Positions 39,076 through 63,564 of a stretch of DNA of 64,000 bases are shown here, one piece after another. The stretch lies in the IMG/VR virus record IMGVR_UViG_3300045902_000133; one strand, given 5' to 3'. This DNA comes from an uncultured virus (IMG/VR IMGVR_UViG_3300045902_000133) (taxonomy: Duplodnaviria > Heunggongvirae > Uroviricota > Caudoviricetes). Numbering within the stretch: the stretch's first letter is position 1; each line of letters begins with the position of its first letter. The position numbers and the translations under genes were made by a program. Under the pieces are notes generated by a model, which did not search any database, was not told the DNA's origin, and saw only the letters and a list, made by a program, of their open reading frames with translations.

Positions 39076-40275
39076 GTGAACGCTACCGTAAACAAGAATC
39101 TCGTCGGAACCATTGTCAAGATCACTAAGGATGGCAGCCGTTATCATGCGATGAATACGAACGGCGATGATCTGACCGATTTGTTCGAGAGCTATCAGAT
39201 GGCCAGGGCATTCGAGGCAAATATGGCGCTCAAGGCCACAAAAGCTGCGAACGGTTTGCAGTGGCGTAAGGTCAGCATGGCCGAGTATGAGGCAGTGGCT
39301 AAGAATCACGCCACCCGAAATTTCAATGATCTGGAAATGGATCACAACAAGATCGTCAAGTTCATCACGAACGCAGCCGCAATTCGGCCACAATCGTACA
39401 AGATGAGCGACCTCAAGTGGCGATTTGCGATCCGCGCCGCAATGCGTGGCAAGAATATGATGGTTACTGGTCCGCAGGGTTGTGGTAAGACCGTGCTCGC
39501 ATTCACACTTTCCGAAGTGCTCAATCGTCCGATTTTCAATATTCCGCTCGGTTCCACACAGGATCCCCGCAGCGTGATTGTTGGTAACACGCATTTCCGG
39601 GAAGGCGAAGGTACGTTCGTGGCCGAATCGTATTTCGTAAATGCGATTAAGACGCCAAATGCCATCGTTCTTTTGGACGAGTTGACTCGCGCCCACCCCG
39701 ATGCGTGGAACCTGTTGATGCCCGTGCTCGACTACAAGCAGCGTTTCCTTCGTATTGATGAAGCACCCGATACGCCGACTATCGCGGTGGCACCCGGCGT
39801 GACATTTATCGCCACGGCAAACATCGGCCACTCGTTTACGGCAACGCGAACGCTCGATGCGGCACTTATGGATCGTTTCACTGTTATCGAAGTGGAGCCG
39901 CTCAATCGTGACGACGAATACAATCTACTCAAGGAACGTTTCCCTGAGGTCAATGATCGTCTGATTCAAGCGGTGGTCAATATCGCCAATGATATTCGCC
40001 GCGATGCGAAGTCGAATGACCCCAAGGTTAGCAACATCGTCAGCACTCGTATGACCATCGAAATCGCCGAGCTGTTGCATGATGGTTTCACGCTCGACGA
40101 GGCAGTGGAAGTTACGGTGTATCCCGCGTTCAGCGATGCGGGTGGCACGGATAGCGAACGCACATTCGTCAAGAGTATCGTACAGAAGCACATGCCGACT
40201 CGTCTCGATGATGTGAAGAGCCCGTTCACGCTGAACGATCCAAACGGCGAGGGCCTTCCCTGGGAATATCGGTAA
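39076..40275 (+). CDS. MoxR/CobS-like AAA+ ATPase
   Basis: GPQGCGKT, LLDELTR, FIATAN, LDAALMDRF, STR. Confidence 0.88.
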   Translation: MNATVNKNLVGTIVKITKDGSRYHAMNTNGDDLTDLFESYQMARAFEANMALKATKAANGLQWRKVSMAEYEAVAKNHATRNFNDLEMDHNKIVKFITNAAAIRPQSYKMSDLKWRFAIRAAMRGKNMMVTGPQGCGKTVLAFTLSEVLNRPIFNIPLGSTQDPRSVIVGNTHFREGEGTFVAESYFVNAIKTPNAIVLLDELTRAHPDAWNLLMPVLDYKQRFLRIDEAPDTPTIAVAPGVTFIATANIGHSFTATRTLDAALMDRFTVIEVEPLNRDDEYNLLKERFPEVNDRLIQAVVNIANDIRRDAKSNDPKVSNIVSTRMTIEIAELLHDGFTLDEAVEVTVYPAFSDAGGTDSERTFVKSIVQKHMPTRLDDVKSPFTLNDPNGEGLPWEYR

Positions 40276-40343
40276 TTTCGGTGTTACAAACTTGTTACAC
40301 AACCAGACTTGATTTTTACAATTCAAGTCGTTAGATTCAGAGT

Positions 40344-42422
40344 ATGACTACTACTATCCAGAATCCATACGTTCAGAAGCGCATCCAAGAACGGATTGCC
40401 AAGGCTCGTGAACAGCACAGCGTTTATTGGCTCGGCGATGAAGCCGAAGAAATGATGACGCAGTGCGAAATAGGTTCGCCCGAACATTTGCGGCGGCTTC
40501 GCATCGTGCAGCGTGCCATCGGCAATTTCGTTCAGATTGTCACTGGACGTAATATCCCCGTGATTTTCTCAAGTGGCAAGCTCAGTTACACCGATGGCAA
40601 GCAGGTCGTGATTTCCGCCGACCTTGATCCGTCGAAGATTGACGTACAGGTCGGTCTGGCGTTGCACGAGGCGTCGCACTGCCTTCTCAGCAATGAGTCA
40701 TTGGCATTTCTTCCGAAGATGGAAAAGAACTTCCGTGATCTTATCAGTAAGAGCACGATTCTGGCAGACGCTGCCAAGATTGGCATGACCGAATCGCAGG
40801 TTCGTCAGCTCATTCAGATGATGATGAATTACATGGAAGATCGTCGTATCGACCTGTGGATGTACGAAAACGCGAGCGGGTATCGCCCGTACTACCAGGC
40901 GTTGTATGATGCACATTGGCACACTCCGAAGATTGACAACGCGCTGCGCGATCCCAAGTTCCGTGATCCGTCCGTTCGCAATTACGAATTGTTCGTTATC
41001 AATATGACGAACAAGCATTTCGATGTTACTGCGCTCCCCGATCTTGACAAGATTCGTGACATTGTAAACTTCACTCGCAAGGGTTTGTTTGCTCGTGGTG
41101 ACGAGGATATTGGGTGGCGTCGGTGGGCTGGTATGGACACGGTCAATCACGATCATCTGCCTCTGTTGTTTGCGGATGCGCTTCGTATTGCGGAAATCAT
41201 CGTCCGTAATAGCAAGTCGGTCACAAGTGAGAATGGTCGGTCGGATGATATGAAGTTGCGGAATGTCAAGACGGTTGTTACTGATATGCCGAATATGGAC
41301 TTTTCGCCGACAAACGAAAACAGCGATGGTGAAGTCGAATATCGTCCCGTGTCTGGTAAAGAACTCGACGCCGCGCTCAACAAGCAGCGTAAGTTCCTTG
41401 ACCACTCGGCGCTCAATGAACAAAAGGAGACGCTGTCAAATCGGATTATGCGAGATCTCCAGATGCTTGAGGATTCCAAGGCCGATTTTAAGACCGTGGA
41501 AGGCAATTTCATTGGTCGTAATGTTAAGTGTCCGATTATCATTTATCGGGAAGTTACCAAGCGGACAGTCCAGAGTGATTCGTTCCCTATGCGATTCGGT
41601 GCTTATGGATATGGTCGTAACGTCGGCCGCAACCCCGATGCAGAACGTGCAGTCGCTGACGGCATTCGTATGGGTCAGGTTCTTGCCTCACGTATTTCCG
41701 TAGTACAGGATGAGAAACCGTTGAAGTTTACTCGTCAGGAAACTGGGCGTATTGATAAGCGACTGATTTCGGGATTTGGATATGGTAACGAAAAGGTGTT
41801 CCATCATATTGTTACTGAACAGCGTCAGCCTGTTGATGTATGGCTCGATATCGACCTGAGTGGTTCGATGATGGGTGAGAAGTTCCGCCAGGCGATGACG
41901 CTTGCCGTGGCTATTGCTTACGCGGCGGAAAAGAATCGTAAGATGAATTGTACGATTGCGGTTCGTGACGGCGGTTCGTCACACGCCCATTTGGCAATTA
42001 TCTATGATAGCAAGCGTCACAAGTTCCAGCGCGTTCGTGATGTGGTGCCGTATCTGTCGGCGGCCGGCGGGACGCCGGAAGCACTGTGCTTCGAAGCGGT
42101 CAAGGAAGAAATTCTCAAGACGAGCAAGGGTGCTAAGAAGTATTTCATCAATCTGTCGGATGGTGAACCCGGCCACGGATTTGAGTGGAAGGGTCGCCAC
42201 TACTCGTACGGCGGTGAATCGGCGTATAAACACACACGTCGTATGATGCAGGAGTTCCGTGCCAATGGTATTCAGGTAATGAGTTATTACATTGGTCACA
42301 GCAAGCAGGAACACGCGGGTTTCCGTAAGATGTATGGTCAGGATGCACATTTCATTGATCCGGCCAATGTTACCAGCATTGCTCGTACACTCAACAAGAT
42401 CATGGTGAATGGAGGTCAATAA
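40344..42422 (+). CDS. VWA-domain partner of MoxR with HExxH-containing N-terminal domain (CobT-like)
   Basis: LHEASH, EDRRID, MIDAS DLSGSM, GGTPE, LSDGEP. Confidence 0.85.
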   Translation: MTTTIQNPYVQKRIQERIAKAREQHSVYWLGDEAEEMMTQCEIGSPEHLRRLRIVQRAIGNFVQIVTGRNIPVIFSSGKLSYTDGKQVVISADLDPSKIDVQVGLALHEASHCLLSNESLAFLPKMEKNFRDLISKSTILADAAKIGMTESQVRQLIQMMMNYMEDRRIDLWMYENASGYRPYYQALYDAHWHTPKIDNALRDPKFRDPSVRNYELFVINMTNKHFDVTALPDLDKIRDIVNFTRKGLFARGDEDIGWRRWAGMDTVNHDHLPLLFADALRIAEIIVRNSKSVTSENGRSDDMKLRNVKTVVTDMPNMDFSPTNENSDGEVEYRPVSGKELDAALNKQRKFLDHSALNEQKETLSNRIMRDLQMLEDSKADFKTVEGNFIGRNVKCPIIIYREVTKRTVQSDSFPMRFGAYGYGRNVGRNPDAERAVADGIRMGQVLASRISVVQDEKPLKFTRQETGRIDKRLISGFGYGNEKVFHHIVTEQRQPVDVWLDIDLSGSMMGEKFRQAMTLAVAIAYAAEKNRKMNCTIAVRDGGSSHAHLAIIYDSKRHKFQRVRDVVPYLSAAGGTPEALCFEAVKEEILKTSKGAKKYFINLSDGEPGHGFEWKGRHYSYGGESAYKHTRRMMQEFRANGIQVMSYYIGHSKQEHAGFRKMYGQDAHFIDPANVTSIARTLNKIMVNGGQ

Positions 42423-42606: not shown

Positions 42607-42954
42607 ATGGCAAGAAACACTGACAAGACACACGCGCTGCTTATTCAGCGATTAGTCGATTTAATCGGACCCGCTCGAGAGCCTTTCATTGAAACCGGTC
42701 GTAAGTTTGACAAGGTGTATGTAGATGGCAAGGTCAGATATTTCGTGGCCAGAACCGATGTGAAAACGGCAAAGGCCGGCGACATTCTTGGTGCCAAGAG
42801 CAAACTCGCGCCGAACTTTCGATGGTTTTTTGGTACTCTGGAAAATGCCGATAAGTGGGATTGGTCTGAATACCACGGCAAGCCGGTCAGTGATGAAACG
42901 GTAATGCAAGAAAAGGGATATGGATCATATGTCCATTATGTCCGTAAAACGTAA
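42607..42954 (+). CDS. Hypothetical protein
   Basis: GRKFDKV...GDIL...K.AP. GAGG RBS and sigma70-like promoter upstream. Confidence 0.65.
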   Translation: MARNTDKTHALLIQRLVDLIGPAREPFIETGRKFDKVYVDGKVRYFVARTDVKTAKAGDILGAKSKLAPNFRWFFGTLENADKWDWSEYHGKPVSDETVMQEKGYGSYVHYVRKT

Positions 42955-43444
42955 ACGTAAACGTGGTAATAGACCTCACTTCCGTAATCGCGTTTTTCGA
43001 ATAAGAGGTACAACGTGTGAGTGGCGAGGATGTAAAGAAACACGCAAAGACATTCTTGAAATTCATCACATAGTTCCTGTCGCACAAGGCGGCAAGGACG
43101 AAATAAATAACGTAAAAGTATACTGTAAGGAGCATCATTTTATGGCACACGAACGAGCCCCAATTAACCTTCTTTCATTTAGCGGCGTAAACCTCGAAGT
43201 CGGTGCCTCTAACGAGGAACGTCAGAAGCAGTTAATCAAGGCCAACCCGAAGTTTGCCAATATTCTTCGGAAGCGTACTCCAAAGCACATCGGCCAGATG
43301 GTTTCCGAATATCGCCTGAAGTCAAATAAAAAGGCGTCCACAAGCAAGACTACAAAGACTACCGCCACAAAGACTATTAATATTGTGGATCTAGCAAATA
43401 TCATCAATTCCCTTAACGAAAAGGGATTCACAATTATCGCTTGA
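42938..43444 (+). CDS. HNH endonuclease
   Basis: CEWRGC...EIHHIVP...GG...NN...C..HH..H. Confidence 0.8.
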   Translation: MSVKRKRKRGNRPHFRNRVFRIRGTTCEWRGCKETRKDILEIHHIVPVAQGGKDEINNVKVYCKEHHFMAHERAPINLLSFSGVNLEVGASNEERQKQLIKANPKFANILRKRTPKHIGQMVSEYRLKSNKKASTSKTTKTTATKTINIVDLANIINSLNEKGFTIIA

Positions 43445-43469
43445 CAAATAAGTTTCTACTGGTTATAAT
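43441..43469 (+). promoter_or_regulatory. Consensus sigma70 promoter
   Basis: TTGACA-17bp-TATAAT with a TG at the extended -10 position region. Confidence 0.85.
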
Positions 43470-43474
43470 TATAG

Positions 43475-44170
43475 AGTGATCCATCTCCGCCGGAACGTGA
43501 ATGACACGGGGAGCCTCCGAAACAGGCGACTCCGGATAGTAAGACGGCGCGAAGATGTTCAACTGGTGAGTGAGGAGCCACCAGTTCGACGCCGGTGGGT
43601 GCGAGAACCACACGCAGGTTGTGAGATCCACTCAAAACTCACCGGCGATGCCTGCCGCCTGTTCGGAGGTCGTGACGACGGATGAATGATGATGAAAAAC
43701 GGCGAGTCTACTTCAACCAAGATGGTGAACGAGACGCAAAAATGAAAAATTTAATTGAAAGCGTGGTTGGTGGTATCTAACCACCCCTATCCGAGTCAAG
43801 CGCGGGTATGATGTCTCCCCCATATGGTATCATACGTCGGTCCCTGCCGACATAGGCATATTTATGATTGAAAATAATATATGGCAGAGGGCTCAAGCTA
43901 GTATGGGTAAACTTGGGTAACAGAAAAGTTGGGTCGATGGTGTACAGCGCACACCCGTGCAACTTCAGTCGTCTAATAAAACAAGACGCCTTGCTTTGAA
44001 CAAGGAAATGCGGGTTGGTCCCGCCTGATACGAAGCACCGGAAGAGCCGGTGATTAATTAAATTAATATTATTACCTATTCCGGCACCGATCCATTTTTC
44101 TTGAAGGTTATTATTACTGCGACCGGTGAGGTCACGGAGAATCCCCGCCCAAGTGGCGGGGATTTTCTTT
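43475..44170 (+). ncRNA. Large (~690 nt) structured non-coding RNA, family not identified
   Basis: Runs from a perfect promoter to a terminator with no credible ORF. Many hairpins and long-range helices (43513-43528/43656-43670; 43489-43495/44079-44085). Confidence 0.7.
44139..44170 (+). terminator. Rho-independent terminator
   Basis: AATCCCCGCC-CAAGT-GGCGGGGATT followed by TTCTTT. Confidence 0.75.
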
Positions 44171-44201
44171 ATGAGAACGATTATACAGGAGATGTGTATA
44201 A

Positions 44202-44798
44202 ATGCCAATCAGCCCAAAAGTCGGTCGCAAACGACCGCTCTTAAAGCGTGACATTGAACATGCGCAAGCCAATACCAATAGTCATCGTCAAGCCGCTCAA
44301 TATCTCCAAGTCAACTTTACGACCTATAAACGCTATGCCAAGGCGTATGAACTCTATGATACCGAATTTAAGAATAAGTCGGGTCGAGGGGTGAGCAAGA
44401 TTCGTCGCAAGAATGCGTTTGGCCTCAACGAAATATTGGAAGGCCGACGACCGGGGTATGACCGGAATCGACTGAAAGAACGATTGATCCGAGCGGGTAT
44501 GCTGGAACAGAGTTGCGGGTATTGCGGTTTCAACAAGGTCAAACCTGATGGCCGAGGCCCATTCGTGATGACCTATCGTGACGATGATAGCAATAATCTT
44601 GCACTAAATAATCTCAATTTAATTTGCTACAATTGTTACTATTTAACTACCGGCACGCTTCGCAAAGATGTGCTCGCACCTGACACGGCGGTCACCTACG
44701 CTGCTCCTGAAGAACTTCAGTTAGATGCACAACAGCTCAACGTCAATTGGGATGACATGGCCGATGACTATGATCGGATCACCGCTGATGATGAATAA
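44202..44798 (+). CDS. HTH plus degenerate HNH/Zn-finger protein
   Basis: RQAAQYLQVNFTTYKRYA helix-turn-helix. CGYCG...TYRDDDSNN..LNNL.LICYNC with the catalytic His absent. Confidence 0.7.
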   Translation: MPISPKVGRKRPLLKRDIEHAQANTNSHRQAAQYLQVNFTTYKRYAKAYELYDTEFKNKSGRGVSKIRRKNAFGLNEILEGRRPGYDRNRLKERLIRAGMLEQSCGYCGFNKVKPDGRGPFVMTYRDDDSNNLALNNLNLICYNCYYLTTGTLRKDVLAPDTAVTYAAPEELQLDAQQLNVNWDDMADDYDRITADDE

Positions 44799-44811: not shown

Positions 44812-45305
44812 CCAATCGAATCCAAACCAAGCTGAAATCCAAACCAGATTCCGATTTAAACCGAACCAAAATCCAATCGAATCCAAACCAAGCTGGAAAC
44901 GTAAAGTGCTCATACCCATGAATTCCGAGCCTCATGAGTTCTGAGCTGATCCAATCCGAGCCCCAAGTTCTGAGCTGATCCAATCCGAGCTTCAAGTTCT
45001 GAGCCTCAAGTTCTGAGCCTTAAGTTCCGAGCCTTAAGTTCTGAGCTGATCCAATCCGAACTTCAAGTTCTGAGCTGATCCAATCCGAGCTGATCCAATC
45101 TGAGCCTCAAGTTCTGAGCCTCAAGTTCCGAGCTGATCCAATCCGAGCTGATCCAATCCGAGCTTCAAGTTCTGAGCTGATCCAATCCGAGCTGATCCAA
45201 TCCGAGCTGATCCAATCCGAGCTTCAAGTTCTGAGCTGATCCAATCCGAGCTGATCCAATCCGAGCTTCAAGTTCTGAGCCGGAAACGTGAGGTGCTCAT
45301 ACCCA
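44812..45305. repeat. Tandem array of two unit types (15 bp and 14 bp) bounded by 27-bp direct repeats
   Basis: 12x GAGCTGATCCAATCY and 12x GAGCYYYAAGTTCY-like units (44927-45276). Flanks GCYGGAAACGTRARGTGCTCATACCCA at 44892 and 45279. CCAATCGAATCCAAACCAAGCTG occurs twice upstream. Confidence 0.9.
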
Positions 45306-45429
45306 ACGGGTATGGATATTTAAATTATAACAAAAACAGATAATATAATTCTACACATCATATACAATATATAATTGGTAAAGTATACGCCCTCGTGTGT
45401 CTAGCTTTTCAAAATTTTTAACGGGAAAT

Positions 45430-45660
45430 TCTTCGGTTCATGTTTTCAGCTCAGATCTTCACATGTTCAGATCTTCCGGTTTTCAGCTCGGCAAACATTC
45501 CGGCTCAGTAACAAGCCCTGTTTTCCGGTTCAGAGCTCTACATGTTCAGATCTTCACGTTTTCAGCTCGGATCTCCACATGTTCAGATCTTCATGTTTTC
45601 AGCTCGGCAAACATTCCGGCTCGGATCTTCACGTTTTCAGATCTCCCGGTTTTCAGATTT
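45430..45660. repeat. Degenerate repeat tract (TTCAGATCTT / TTTCAGCTC units)
   Basis: TTTTCAGCTCGGCAAACATTCCGGCTC occurs twice and CATGTTCAGATCTTC three times. Confidence 0.8.
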
Positions 45661-45838
45661 CTATATGATGTTCAGCAGATTAGCTAGCTATTTAGTTGCC
45701 AAGTTGCACGTTTTAGCGTTTTTGCACAATTTCTGGAACTGGTATATATAATATACGTGACTCGAGTTAATTAAATTAAATGCTTTTCGGGACCGGCGCA
45801 CACTTGACTTTTTGACCCGCAGCCGTTATGTTTCAACC

Positions 45839-46343: not shown

Positions 46344-47228
46344 ATGACCATTATGCGTATTATACCGATCACCATGCTCATTGCACTCGCGTTGACCGGC
46401 CACGCGCAACCGCTCACGATCAGCCCCGCCACGGTTCAGACCGGGGAGACCATGCAGTTCCGAACCCGGCCGGGCCTCGGAGAAGCCGACTCCGGTGCAG
46501 AACCGTTCTTCCAGGACGGATTCGAGTCAGGCGCCAAGACGAACCGCAACGGATTCAGGTGGGGCGACGCAACCTTCGTCACCGTATCCGACATTCGCGC
46601 ACGCTCGGGATCATACGCGCTCCGCTTCAGGTTCAAGGCGAGGCCAGTGGGACAGAACAACATGGCGGAGCAGAGGTTCGACATGGGTCGATACCTTTCG
46701 GAGTTGTGGCTGGAGTATATGCTGTATGTCCCAGCCAACTACGTGCACCGCAATGACCAGCCCAACAACAACACGTTCTTGGTGTTCTGGCTAGATCGCT
46801 ACGACGGTCCAGGTACCTGGCACGCCGCCATCGAGCTCCTGCGCCGCTCCGATTTGGAGTCTGAGGCCCGCATCCTTGCCAGAAAGACCACCTCGAATCT
46901 GGTGGGCAACTCGCGACCAGAAGGGATCCAGTGGCCTCGATTCATCCATCCCAACGGGCCGGTTCGTATCGGTGAGTGGACGAGGATCCGAGTGCATCTC
47001 AAGGCCTCCAGCAGTTGGTCTGCTGACAATGGAGTGTTCGAGTTGTGGGCAGATTCGACTCTGGTGTTTGGACACTACACCGCCCGATTCCATAACTTCG
47101 ACACCGCAATACCTGACGCGGCGCTGCGCCGTGGCTACTTCATGGGTTGGGCGAACTCGGGGTTCACCGAAGATACGGACTTCTTCATCGACGACGTGAA
47201 GTTCTACGACCGGAACCCGGGTTGGTAA
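46344..47228 (+). CDS. Secreted beta-jelly-roll (polysaccharide lyase/LamG-like) protein
   Basis: Signal peptide ..TGHA-Q; FFQDGFESG, ARSGSYALRF, GEWTRI, NGVFELW, FFIDDV. GC-rich. Confidence 0.65.
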   Translation: MTIMRIIPITMLIALALTGHAQPLTISPATVQTGETMQFRTRPGLGEADSGAEPFFQDGFESGAKTNRNGFRWGDATFVTVSDIRARSGSYALRFRFKARPVGQNNMAEQRFDMGRYLSELWLEYMLYVPANYVHRNDQPNNNTFLVFWLDRYDGPGTWHAAIELLRRSDLESEARILARKTTSNLVGNSRPEGIQWPRFIHPNGPVRIGEWTRIRVHLKASSSWSADNGVFELWADSTLVFGHYTARFHNFDTAIPDAALRRGYFMGWANSGFTEDTDFFIDDVKFYDRNPGW

Positions 47229-47349
47229 GCGAGTGGCACCTCAAGCGTGTATTTATCTGGTAGGGTCAAGCCTATAGCTTTGGCGAGCCGATCAGCCAGG
47301 CCGAAGCATCTCGTCTTCTCAACACCTGATTCACAATTTTTCAACGAGT

Positions 47350-49416
47350 ATGACCATTATGAACATTATCTCAATTCTGCGACCGGCCATGTTGGCTGCA
47401 CTCATCTTGACCGGCCACGCACAACAACCACAGCTCACCGCGCTCACGATCAGCCCCAAGACGGCGACTGTTCAGACCGGGGAGACCATGCAGTTCCGAA
47501 CCCAGGCCCGGTGGAGCACGAACAGAACCACATTTGCAAGAATTTCCTACTCGACGACCGGTGGCACCATCGCCTCGACAGGCCGGTACACCGCACCAAG
47601 CACGCCCGGCACCTATCTGGTCATTGCCGCACATGTTGGTGGCACGCTCCGTGACACGGCGGTGGTGACGGTGCAGGCGGCGGTGACGCTGACATCGCTC
47701 ACGATCAATCCGAAGACGGTAACGCTCGGCACGGGGGCGACCCAGCAGTTCTCGGTGAACGGAACGTGGAGCAACGGCGCCACCACGGCCCCGACCGTGA
47801 CGTACACCGCCACCGGAGGCACGGTGACCGCAGGCGGGCTCTATACCGCCCCGAGCACGGCCGGCACTTACCGGGTGATCGCGGCGCACACTGGCGGGAC
47901 ACTGCGTGACACCGGCGTGGTCACGGTGACCGGCCCAGTAGCGGATCCGCTCCTCGAACCGGTGCCCACGTCCAACGTGATCTTTTCCGACAATTTCGAC
48001 AGCTACAGCACCATCACCGGTGGAGCGAACTCTCTTGAAGGCCCTTGGGCGTTGAGTCCCGGTGACCGACCAACATTCATCACCGGCCGTGGTGGGTCTG
48101 GTAAGGCCGTGCGATTCGATTATACCACCACGAAGCTGCACTATGTCATCGAGCGCAACATTAGCGCCCGCACCAATATCGTGGTGCAGTACTGGTTCCG
48201 GTTTTCCGCAGGCGCAGATCCGACCAGTGGCGGTGATAACTACTCGGGCATGAAGTGGCTCATCCTGAATCGTGCGACCGGCGTGGGACGCTACACGTTC
48301 GGCATCAGCAACATGAACGGGGGCGGACCACCCGGCGTGTCCAACACGGGCCGGGAGTTCACGGTGTTCGATGAGTCCGCCGCGCCGAACATGCCCGACC
48401 CATTCGTGCAGAACGTCACGAAAACCGTGAAGCAATCCACGGTCGCCGACGGCCAGTGGCACCGCTACACCGTGCAGGTCCAGACGGGAAGTGGCGGCTG
48501 GGTTCGCGTTTGGGTTGATGGCACGCTCGTGCTCAACACGCAGGGTTACGCCTATAACCATTCGCCAGACGGGATCGCCTACATCGACCTACCTGCAAAT
48601 GTGAATAAGATTCTGCCAGGTTACAATTTCACTTTGGACGTTGACGACATCAGGGCCTGGGTACCGGAGATCCCGGCATCGAGTGGGTTCTGCCCGAATG
48701 AACCGGCCGGACTCACGCTTGTTGGCGACACCAAGTTCCCGACCCTCAATCCGTCCGGCTGGCAGCAGTTCTACGGACAGCTCGTGTCGGACGCATCCGG
48801 ACCTGAGCTCGGAACGTCGATTGCGTTCCGGTTCCCGAAAGGATCATCGGAAGGCGGCTACGGAGCGGTGGAGCCTGCCAACGGCCTGCCGGCGCAGACG
48901 CGCCGTGTCTACAGCTGCTTCGTCTGGAAGCAGTCGCCGAACTTCCAAAACCACCCGAGTGATACCAAGGTCCTGTATCCGTTCCGCGCGACCAGATCGG
49001 GCGAGCGTCGCGACTTCGTCTGGGGTTTCGAGCCCGTCGGTTCCGTCTCCAGCGGGACGTTCCGGTCGAAGATCACCACGCAGTCATCGGTGGACGGCGA
49101 CAACCGTCGGGACAACCTCGCGGCGATGACCTTCCGTACGGGTCGGTGGTACAGGACGGAGATCCTGGTGGTCCACAACACGCCCGGGGTCAAGAACGGC
49201 ACGTACACCGCGTGGACGAGTGAGTGGAACGGCACGGCATGGACCAGCCCGGTGCGACATGCGCATTGGACCGATTTAGGCTACAGCGACAGCGGTGACG
49301 CCGGTTACTGGACCCGCTGGCAGTTCGACCAGTATATGGGTGGGCAAGGTGGGAGCCCGGTCCCGGAGGATCAGTTCATCTACTTCAATCGCATTCGCGT
49401 TGCGGCTTCGCGGTAG
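47350..49416 (+). CDS. Secreted protein with two Ig-like repeats and two jelly-roll/lectin-like domains
   Basis: Signal peptide. Repeat LTISPKT...TGGT...G.YTAPST.GTY.VIAAH.GGTLRDT occurs twice. DGQWH, VWVDG and GRWY motifs. Confidence 0.75.
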   Translation: MTIMNIISILRPAMLAALILTGHAQQPQLTALTISPKTATVQTGETMQFRTQARWSTNRTTFARISYSTTGGTIASTGRYTAPSTPGTYLVIAAHVGGTLRDTAVVTVQAAVTLTSLTINPKTVTLGTGATQQFSVNGTWSNGATTAPTVTYTATGGTVTAGGLYTAPSTAGTYRVIAAHTGGTLRDTGVVTVTGPVADPLLEPVPTSNVIFSDNFDSYSTITGGANSLEGPWALSPGDRPTFITGRGGSGKAVRFDYTTTKLHYVIERNISARTNIVVQYWFRFSAGADPTSGGDNYSGMKWLILNRATGVGRYTFGISNMNGGGPPGVSNTGREFTVFDESAAPNMPDPFVQNVTKTVKQSTVADGQWHRYTVQVQTGSGGWVRVWVDGTLVLNTQGYAYNHSPDGIAYIDLPANVNKILPGYNFTLDVDDIRAWVPEIPASSGFCPNEPAGLTLVGDTKFPTLNPSGWQQFYGQLVSDASGPELGTSIAFRFPKGSSEGGYGAVEPANGLPAQTRRVYSCFVWKQSPNFQNHPSDTKVLYPFRATRSGERRDFVWGFEPVGSVSSGTFRSKITTQSSVDGDNRRDNLAAMTFRTGRWYRTEILVVHNTPGVKNGTYTAWTSEWNGTAWTSPVRHAHWTDLGYSDSGDAGYWTRWQFDQYMGGQGGSPVPEDQFIYFNRIRVAASR

Positions 49417-63495: not shown

Positions 63496-63564
63496 TATCA
63501 CATGGTCTAACGGATAGGACGGCCCCTGGGGGGGCAGATATGGGTTCGAGTCCCATTGTGATTA
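63496..63564 (+). pseudogene. tRNA-like element with collapsed anticodon loop
   Basis: Acceptor ATCACA/TGTGAT, intact D arm and T arm ATGGG-TTCGAGT-CCCAT. Anticodon arm GCCCC-TGGG-GGGGC has a 4-nt loop. Confidence 0.55.

Follow-up and report, generated by a model that had tools for sequence, protein, structure and literature searches.

A candidate structured RNA of about 690 nt in a large T4-like phage, with an embedded tRNA-Gln(UUG)-like cloverleaf and a short reading frame

The window, a 64,000-nt stretch of DNA from an uncultured virus of the Caudoviricetes (IMG/VR record IMGVR_UViG_3300045902_000133), belongs to a large T4-like phage, which codes for a polymerase, a clamp, clamp loaders, rIIA/B and many glycosyltransferases. 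Two plus-strand genes of the HNH type enclose a region of about 690 nt, the features of which are listed in Table 1. Two viral records match the window identically across this region. One of them (G002) extends the genome, and in it Rfam gives 42 additional tRNA hits; a tmRNA, a group I intron and a true GOLLD RNA are present as well. The tRNA region of the phage contains a one-piece tmRNA (tag ANPALALAA) and a group I intron-like element (L152 6341-6686 (-) and 13806-14007 (-)), and the tRNA set includes a tRNA with a CUA anticodon and one with an ACC anticodon. A tRNA-like gene at 63496-63564 of the window has an abnormal short G-rich anticodon loop and is labelled 'tRNA-???' by ARAGORN.

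Table 1. Features of the RNA locus and its borders, with positions in the window
Feature	Position	Strand	Basis
HNH1, HNH endonuclease gene	42920..43444	+	Pfam HNH, E 2.6e-7
sigma70-type promoter TTGACA-17-TATAAT	43441..43469	+	12/12 consensus
5' strand of the helix that joins the two RNA ends (3' partner 44123-44135, immediately ahead of the terminator)	43476..43493	+	pair p 0.84, 0.68; prediction
5' structured module (15-bp closing stem, one bulge, three inner hairpins)	43513..43670	+	z -3.9, 0/300 shuffles
GGAGGT, Shine-Dalgarno-like, 11 nt upstream of the start codon, forming the 3' side of the 15-bp stem	43665..43670	+	sequence, fold
ORF P0018, 32 codons, acidic N-terminus	43682..43780	+	translation; called as gene in JGI/IMG
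Weakly structured linker	43800..43921	+	z +0.7; 236/300 shuffles fold as well
3' structured domain	43922..44101	+	z -3.2, 1/300 shuffles
tRNA-Gln(UUG)-like cloverleaf	43962..44031	+	descriptor match, 0/5000 shuffles
Intrinsic terminator (14-bp hairpin, 44136-44168, and U-rich tail)	44136..44172	+	pair p 0.99
Convergent sigma70-like site, directed into the RNA 3' end	44180..44208	-	11/12; sequence scan
HNH2, conserved HNH-fold gene with N-terminal helical region	44202..44798	+	PHROGs HNH, E 1.4e-6

An earlier reading of the letters alone (the sequence-only reading) had placed the RNA between two HNH-fold genes, and HNH profile matches for both genes bear this out. The stop codon of HNH1 overlaps the -35 hexamer of the RNA promoter, and its product has one relative, which is 75% identical and of equal length. 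HNH2 starts about 30 nt past the terminator, and a promoter-like site for it is lacking on the plus strand. An alignment, read with what we take to be the positions of the HNH motif, indicates that the catalytic histidines are replaced in its HNH-like zinc-binding region. The structure model of HNH2 has a pLDDT of 72, and its fold matches are weak (best E 0.1), with several HNH-fold proteins among them. Relatives of HNH2 exist at 56-76% protein identity, and the gene is conserved in many large phages, where it often lies ahead of a non-coding gap. HNH2 was considered as a partner of the RNA and rejected. The RNA is absent from all 80 distant HNH2 loci examined. Enough upstream DNA was available for 47 distinct loci; in 44 of these the gap upstream of HNH2 does not exceed 223 nt, and in 3 a protein-coding ORF extends up to the gene. 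Since relatives have HNH2 without the RNA, or without room for it directly upstream, this gene is regarded as a neighbour.

Downstream of HNH2, at a sign change of the GC skew, the window has two arrays of 14-15-nt mixed repeats in opposite orientation (44812-45690). Similar repeat-rich gaps follow HNH2 in some distant relatives (clear in 2 of the 4 that were displayed). The arrays are a candidate origin or genome-end region, to which HNH2 might bind.

The borders of the RNA are marked by conventional signals. The consensus promoter that had been proposed is indeed present, with all 12 positions matching. In 139,695 nt of phage sequence, scanned on both strands, only two such 12/12 sites occur; the second is located in the tRNA array, and the first 14 nt are common to both. 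From the promoter spacing, transcription is predicted to start at 43475/43476. A terminator had likewise been postulated, and a 14-bp hairpin (44136-44168) followed by a U-rich run, absent from the list of a simple terminator scan, was found at the 3' end. The convergent site beyond it is one of 10 sites at 11/12 in the 139,695 nt; it would start an antisense RNA at the terminator, reading into the cloverleaf domain. A 10-mer within the RNA (43865-43874), which resembles a boxA-type signal, is found in the 139,695 nt only here and in the GOLLD leader. As it was chosen post hoc, with about 0.5 copies expected by a rough estimate, it carries little weight.

Every half of the helices listed in the sequence-only reading is present, at its position wherever one had been given. 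The description of the RNA as highly structured holds for its modules, which fold strongly (z -3 to -4), but not for the whole RNA, where structure is moderate once the terminator is left out (z about -1.7). In numbers, the fold z score is -3.96 with the terminator (0/20 shuffles as good), and -1.64 (0/40 shuffles) and -1.78 (3/60) without it. For comparison, the tmRNA of the same phage has a z score of -2.5, parts of its GOLLD have -2.6 and -5.4, and one of five coding control windows reaches -2.11. The minus strand folds equally well or better (z -3.4). Watson-Crick stems of at least 8 bp number 8 in the RNA versus 2.3 +/- 1.6 in shuffles (1/300).

The helix GCCGGAA/TTCCGGC (43489/44079), which had been thought to close nearly the whole RNA, loses out to other pairings: 44079-84 is predicted to join 44038-43 nearby (p 0.92), and the partner of the 5' end is 44123-44135 (p 0.7-0.8). 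Forcing that helix costs 2.9 kcal/mol. Within the 5' module, the four main helices have probabilities of 0.89-0.97. Its longest inner hairpin holds CGAGA (43602-06) and UGAGA (43622-26), which may be read as T-loop-like words. The following segment (43671-43800) has a z score of -2.4 (2/300 shuffles). In the 3' domain, a long helix (43922-43942/44085-44101) surrounds the cloverleaf and two hairpins, with helix probabilities of 0.86-0.88. The module z scores are inflated because the boundaries were picked after the fold had been seen. The segment 43911-18 is complementary over 8 bp to the 5' arm and loop of the terminator; 7-8-bp stems are common in this part of the DNA, with at least 45 of them listed.

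Two features had been overlooked in the sequence-only reading, the embedded cloverleaf and a 32-codon ORF. The statement that the RNA is without a credible ORF has to be revised, as the frame at 43682-43780 combines gene-like codon use with a Shine-Dalgarno-like site. With this internal ORF, the label "non-coding" becomes doubtful. Measured against 395 real coding windows of 32 codons, the codon score of the ORF ranks at the 92nd percentile; it is equalled by 1 of 1551 off-frame windows and attained by 16 of 3000 shuffles of the ORF. Shuffles of the whole RNA yield an equally good best ORF in 15 of 2000 cases. In the JGI/IMG gene collection, the ORF is a singleton cluster, with no relatives at 90%. 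For its peptide, no usable match was obtained in the Atlas and no tblastn match in phages; the peptide is without a membrane-spanning hydrophobic stretch. The distance from GGAGGT to the start codon is slightly greater than for the GAGG sites of the phage's genes. The first five bases of GGAGGT are buried; for each of six transcript lengths tried, their probability of being unpaired is at most 0.01. A 143-codon antisense frame and a 69-codon 5' frame were also considered as genes and rejected, since they have no relatives and are absent from the gene collection.

It was a weak blastn match to tRNA-Gly genes of phages that directed attention to 43962-44031. Relaxed ARAGORN reports a tRNA-Gln(ttg) here, and the cloverleaf is undetected by the Rfam tRNA model and by default ARAGORN. 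With a single-sequence model of the 3' domain, E values of 0.004-0.8 are obtained at tRNA-array loci. In the D, anticodon and T stems, each of the 14 pairs is Watson-Crick. As in a canonical tRNA-Gln(UUG), U8 and the YUNNNRN anticodon loop are kept, the loop being identical to that of one ordinary tRNA-Gln(UUG) gene of the same phage. Departures are limited to the D-loop, which is without GG, the T-loop, which has 5 nt, and the acceptor end, where 4 of 7 pairs form (the outer 3 are broken) and CCA is lacking. Such departures are rare in this phage: among 47 tRNAs called, the D-loop GG is kept in 44 and the T-loop consensus in 45. Both are absent in two, one of which is the tRNA within the phage's GOLLD. 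The phage also has two ordinary tRNA-Gln(UUG) genes, so that the copy in the RNA is not needed for decoding. In the full-length ensemble, an alternative pairing through the anticodon (p 0.85) is favoured over the anticodon stem, and forcing the cloverleaf costs 1.4 kcal/mol.

The RNA has no Rfam match at gathering score. In the segment 43300-44300, no large-RNA, tmRNA, RNase P or intron family matches up to E 10, in line with the earlier remark that hallmarks of tmRNA, RNase P and introns could not be found. The OLE, HEARO, T-box, riboswitch, RNase P and group I/II models are likewise without a match up to E 10 in this segment. Up to this threshold there are seven weak matches, four on the terminator region and three to chance pieces. 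The group I intron model works here, as it matches this phage at another locus. Readings of the RNA as RNase P, group II domain V, hammerhead or T-box, based on hallmark motifs, were rejected; the words are not collinear, and Rfam is without a match.

The RNA had been compared with ROOL and GOLLD. Size and phage context do fit, but by covariance models it is a member of neither. The GOLLD model (RF02032, conserved 3' domain, gathering score 150 bits) does not detect this RNA and finds the phage's own GOLLD with 198 bits. The latter is located at G002:C1:47903-48369 (-) (locus L150 1501-1967), and its linker holds a tRNA-Ser-like unit, which is without D-loop GG and T-loop consensus. A three-word pattern of the conserved GOLLD 3' end occurs in 82 viral stretches; in the phage record, it hits the GOLLD locus and not this RNA. 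Proximity to a tRNA array, a criterion for GOLLD, is not found, as the nearest tRNA is 19 kb away and the main tRNA array starts about 37 kb away. An embedded tRNA is an optional GOLLD feature, which is present in this RNA at 43962-44031 and was found in 3 of 56 distinct GOLLD loci. In the GOLLD of another virus (L201), the linker contains a complete tRNA-Gln(UUG) with CCA. Passages in PMC12286853 and PMC12990946 state that tRNAs sometimes sit in the GOLLD linker, and the former describes GOLLD and ROOL as RNA-only homo-oligomeric nanocages. The RNA thus has in common with GOLLD that it is large and structured, that it occurs in a phage rich in tRNAs, and that a tRNA-like unit is embedded in it. 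It differs in having its own promoter and terminator far from the main tRNA array, in placing the tRNA-like unit within the long helix of the 3' domain, and in its gene-like ORF.

The ROOL model (RF03087, gathering score 99.1 bits) has no matches at E <= 1 in two phage records, one of which contains the RNA. It recovers its positive control from L. salivarius with 130 bits, and this control has no pairwise similarity to the RNA. The RNA is like ROOL in its similar length, in being phage-borne and in being multi-branched; a feature of ROOL's own is its three pseudoknots. According to passages in PMC5737381, ROOL has a mean length of 581 nt, a known phage context and few invariant bases. As in tmRNA (RF00023), a tRNA-like part is joined in one RNA with a reading frame that is short and A-rich and ends in a hairpin. 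The tRNA-like domain of tmRNA is built from the 5' and 3' ends of the molecule, terminates in CCA and has no anticodon arm, whereas the cloverleaf in this RNA is contiguous and internal, has an anticodon arm and is without a free CCA end. Default ARAGORN finds no tmRNA tag in the RNA, and its relaxed calls are marked 'tag not identified'. The contiguous cloverleaf with its anticodon arm and the lack of a tag exclude that the RNA is a tmRNA. A tRNA mimic within an mRNA is reportedly found in the E. coli thrS operator. As in mimics of that type, an anticodon arm is shown within a longer RNA near a blocked ribosome site. Unlike in thrS, the cloverleaf is near-complete and follows the ORF, and the neighbouring genes include no synthetase.

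Only identical copies of the RNA were found across all searches. A blastn search against 50,697 phage records returned 9 weak matches to tRNA-Gly and 2 chance matches, and one against plasmids 2 chance matches of 28 nt. Four exact-pattern scans of viral contigs yielded 46 loci (2 of them self), 2 loci (both self), 2 loci (both self) and 30 loci (2 self, 28 unrelated proteins). With nhmmer, no non-identical copy was detected in 82 HNH2 loci, 16 AAA loci, 80 GOLLD loci or the rest of the phage. Whole records were picked via 44 of the 80 GOLLD loci. Single-sequence covariance models found, in 49 viral records, the RNA itself and one 46-nt piece at E 0.043; there was no homologue in 50 sources searched in the same way, and a search of 40 kb with filters off had a best E of 0.7. 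In 50 viral records, blastn gave 3 matches, each being the word used to retrieve that record, and a D-arm pattern with 3 mismatches allowed gave none. Among GTDB contigs, 1 distant locus was obtained by HNH2 alignment. In the nearest strain (93% identical), the sequence stops some 800 nt short of the RNA; the region is missing from the nearest record (G001). No description of the RNA was found in a literature search, which covered 6 supplementary files of PMC10690425, the largest catalogue of viral RNA candidates. Three 12-nt words of the RNA are absent from these 6 files; the other 3 files of this paper could possibly list the RNA. The data support a structured transcript of about 690 nt that has a strong promoter, stands by itself and lies outside Rfam, and we consider it a real, uncatalogued candidate with a single example, from one phage only.

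As to its nature, we tentatively favour that this is one structured RNA, GOLLD-like in plan and unrelated to GOLLD in sequence, which displays an unprocessable tRNA mimic; this is our leading reading, held with less than even confidence. An abundant transcript of about 690 nt would extend between the strong promoter of host type (at 43441) and the terminator (44136-44172); the signals are visible in the DNA, transcription is expected from them. Its ends are predicted to pair just before the terminator, enclosing the 5' module, the short ORF and the mimic-bearing 3' domain. In sequence, the mimic keeps the D-arm, anticodon arm and T-stem, with the elbow loops, acceptor end and CCA lost. The elbow and the acceptor end are the usual recognition points of tRNA processing. 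With the parts read by the processing enzymes gone, the mimic would stay inside the large RNA. The RNA would most likely act in trans on host tRNA-handling proteins, offering an intact Gln anticodon arm as a decoy or sponge; possible targets might be an anticodon nuclease, a U34-modifying enzyme or a synthetase. This decoy role is an inference. It may be noted that tRNA-Gln(UUG) belongs to the U34-thiolated set and that anticodon nucleases are a known anti-phage defence, as passages in PMC4810235 indicate. With its ribosome site hidden by the 5' module, the ORF would yield the peptide only once the RNA has refolded or been cleaved, if at all.

The favoured reading of one structured, mimic-displaying RNA is supported by the perfect promoter in the style of the tRNA array, the terminator and the 5'-3' closing helix, by the z scores of the modules (-3.9, -2.4 and -3.2) and the excess of long Watson-Crick stems, by the cloverleaf (0/5000) and its 14/14 arm pairs, by the rarity of elbow-less tRNAs in the phage, by its two ordinary tRNA-Gln(UUG) genes and by the tRNAs found in some GOLLD linkers. 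Counting against it are the lack of a non-identical homologue, an overall z score below that of the phage's tmRNA and GOLLD parts, the equally good or better folding of the minus strand, the disfavoured anticodon stem in the full-length ensemble and the coding-like ORF, which fits an mRNA.

This last point also speaks for the main competing view, which we hold to be somewhat less probable: the locus may be a satellite mini-operon, made up of a structured leader or orphan module, a real small gene and a drifting tRNA-Gln, with an incidental end-to-end fold. It agrees with the gene-like ORF, with the unstructured linker (43800-43921) and the modest overall z score, and with the tRNA region of the phage, which likewise mixes tRNAs, small ORFs and spacers and has a promoter of the same type. 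Given the working tRNA-Gln(UUG) copies in the phage, this copy would be free to decay. Random decay should, however, also strike the arm stems, and yet 14 of 14 pairs are intact. Further, the cloverleaf sits inside a long enclosing helix, the RNA ends pair beside the terminator, and the ribosome site of the ORF is blocked at every length tried. The blocked site is accommodated if the locus is a cis-regulated mRNA, the 5' module of which hides the ribosome site, while the mimic would be an operator-like sensor for the peptide or for read-through into HNH2. The thrS leader is a precedent for such a sensor, GGAGGT makes up the 3' side of the 15-bp stem, HNH2 follows the terminator after about 30 nt and lacks its own plus-strand promoter-like site, and 43911-18 complements the 5' arm and loop of the terminator over 8 bp. 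We nevertheless consider this unlikely. The alternative pairings also cover GGAGGT, so that an open state is not seen; 7-8 bp stems are plentiful (at least 45 listed); no riboswitch or T-box model matches; and relatives express HNH2 directly behind protein genes, without the RNA.

That the RNA is a very divergent member of ROOL, GOLLD, tmRNA or RNase P, missed by the models, is very unlikely. Its size and phage context fit ROOL and GOLLD as portrayed in parts of PMC5737381, where ROOL is also said to have few invariant bases, so that a distant member could score low; the tRNA-like part with a short A-rich frame recalls tmRNA. Against this, there is no Rfam match up to E 10, the GOLLD model picks out the GOLLD of the phage (198 bits) but passes over this RNA, the ROOL model recovers its positive control and nothing in the phage record, and a normal tmRNA is encoded elsewhere in the phage. 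Still less probable is a type I toxin-antitoxin-like pair, in which a fold-back mRNA for a small peptide would be kept silent by its own fold, together with antisense RNA made at the convergent promoter. The buried ribosome site, the 5'-3' pairing, the small ORF and the 11/12 promoter (44208-44180) would suit it. Most type I toxins have a membrane-spanning hydrophobic stretch, though, which the ORF peptide lacks; the antisense RNA would cover the terminator and the cloverleaf rather than the ribosome site; and the cloverleaf is left unexplained. We give least credence to an RNA associated with replication or a genome end and with the repeat arrays at 44812-45690. The RNA does lie about 650 nt upstream of these arrays, where the GC skew changes sign, but the terminator and a whole gene intervene, and relatives with HNH2 and downstream repeats have no RNA.

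It is tempting to speculate on an extension of the favoured structured-RNA reading, even if it is quite unlikely, in which the RNA, as a new kind with two functions, is also a messenger. The mimic would be bound but not released by host tRNA enzymes, and binding or cleavage would open the 15-bp helix, so that the 32-residue peptide is translated. In this way, the phage might detect that U34-modified tRNAs are being attacked or depleted, and respond by making a protein. Speculatively, the altered T-loop (UUGGU) might receive tRNA CCA ends or pair with the complementary ACCAA inside the ORF (43716-20).

GOLLD and ROOL form giant RNA cages, and some GOLLDs hold a tRNA inside. An elbow-less tRNA is found in the GOLLD of this phage and in the sequence-unrelated RNA described here, which suggests that a captive tRNA mimic is a recurring phage device. 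If the fold holds, the RNA would be a third large phage RNA scaffold and would allow a direct test of the decoy or storage ideas. If the mimic switches the small ORF, this would be a new coupling of tRNA surveillance to translation.

Two further gene pairs in the vicinity deserve mention. Upstream of HNH1 (39076-42422), a MoxR/CbbQ-type AAA+ ATPase precedes a protein of 692 aa, the C-terminus of which is probably a vWA domain (weak PHROGs match), and this pair is found again near HNH2 in distant phages. Beyond the repeat arrays (46344-49416), two GC-rich genes have a duplicated 5' end in common and code for polysaccharide-lyase-like and Ig-like domains; their products are likely surface or tail-associated proteins.
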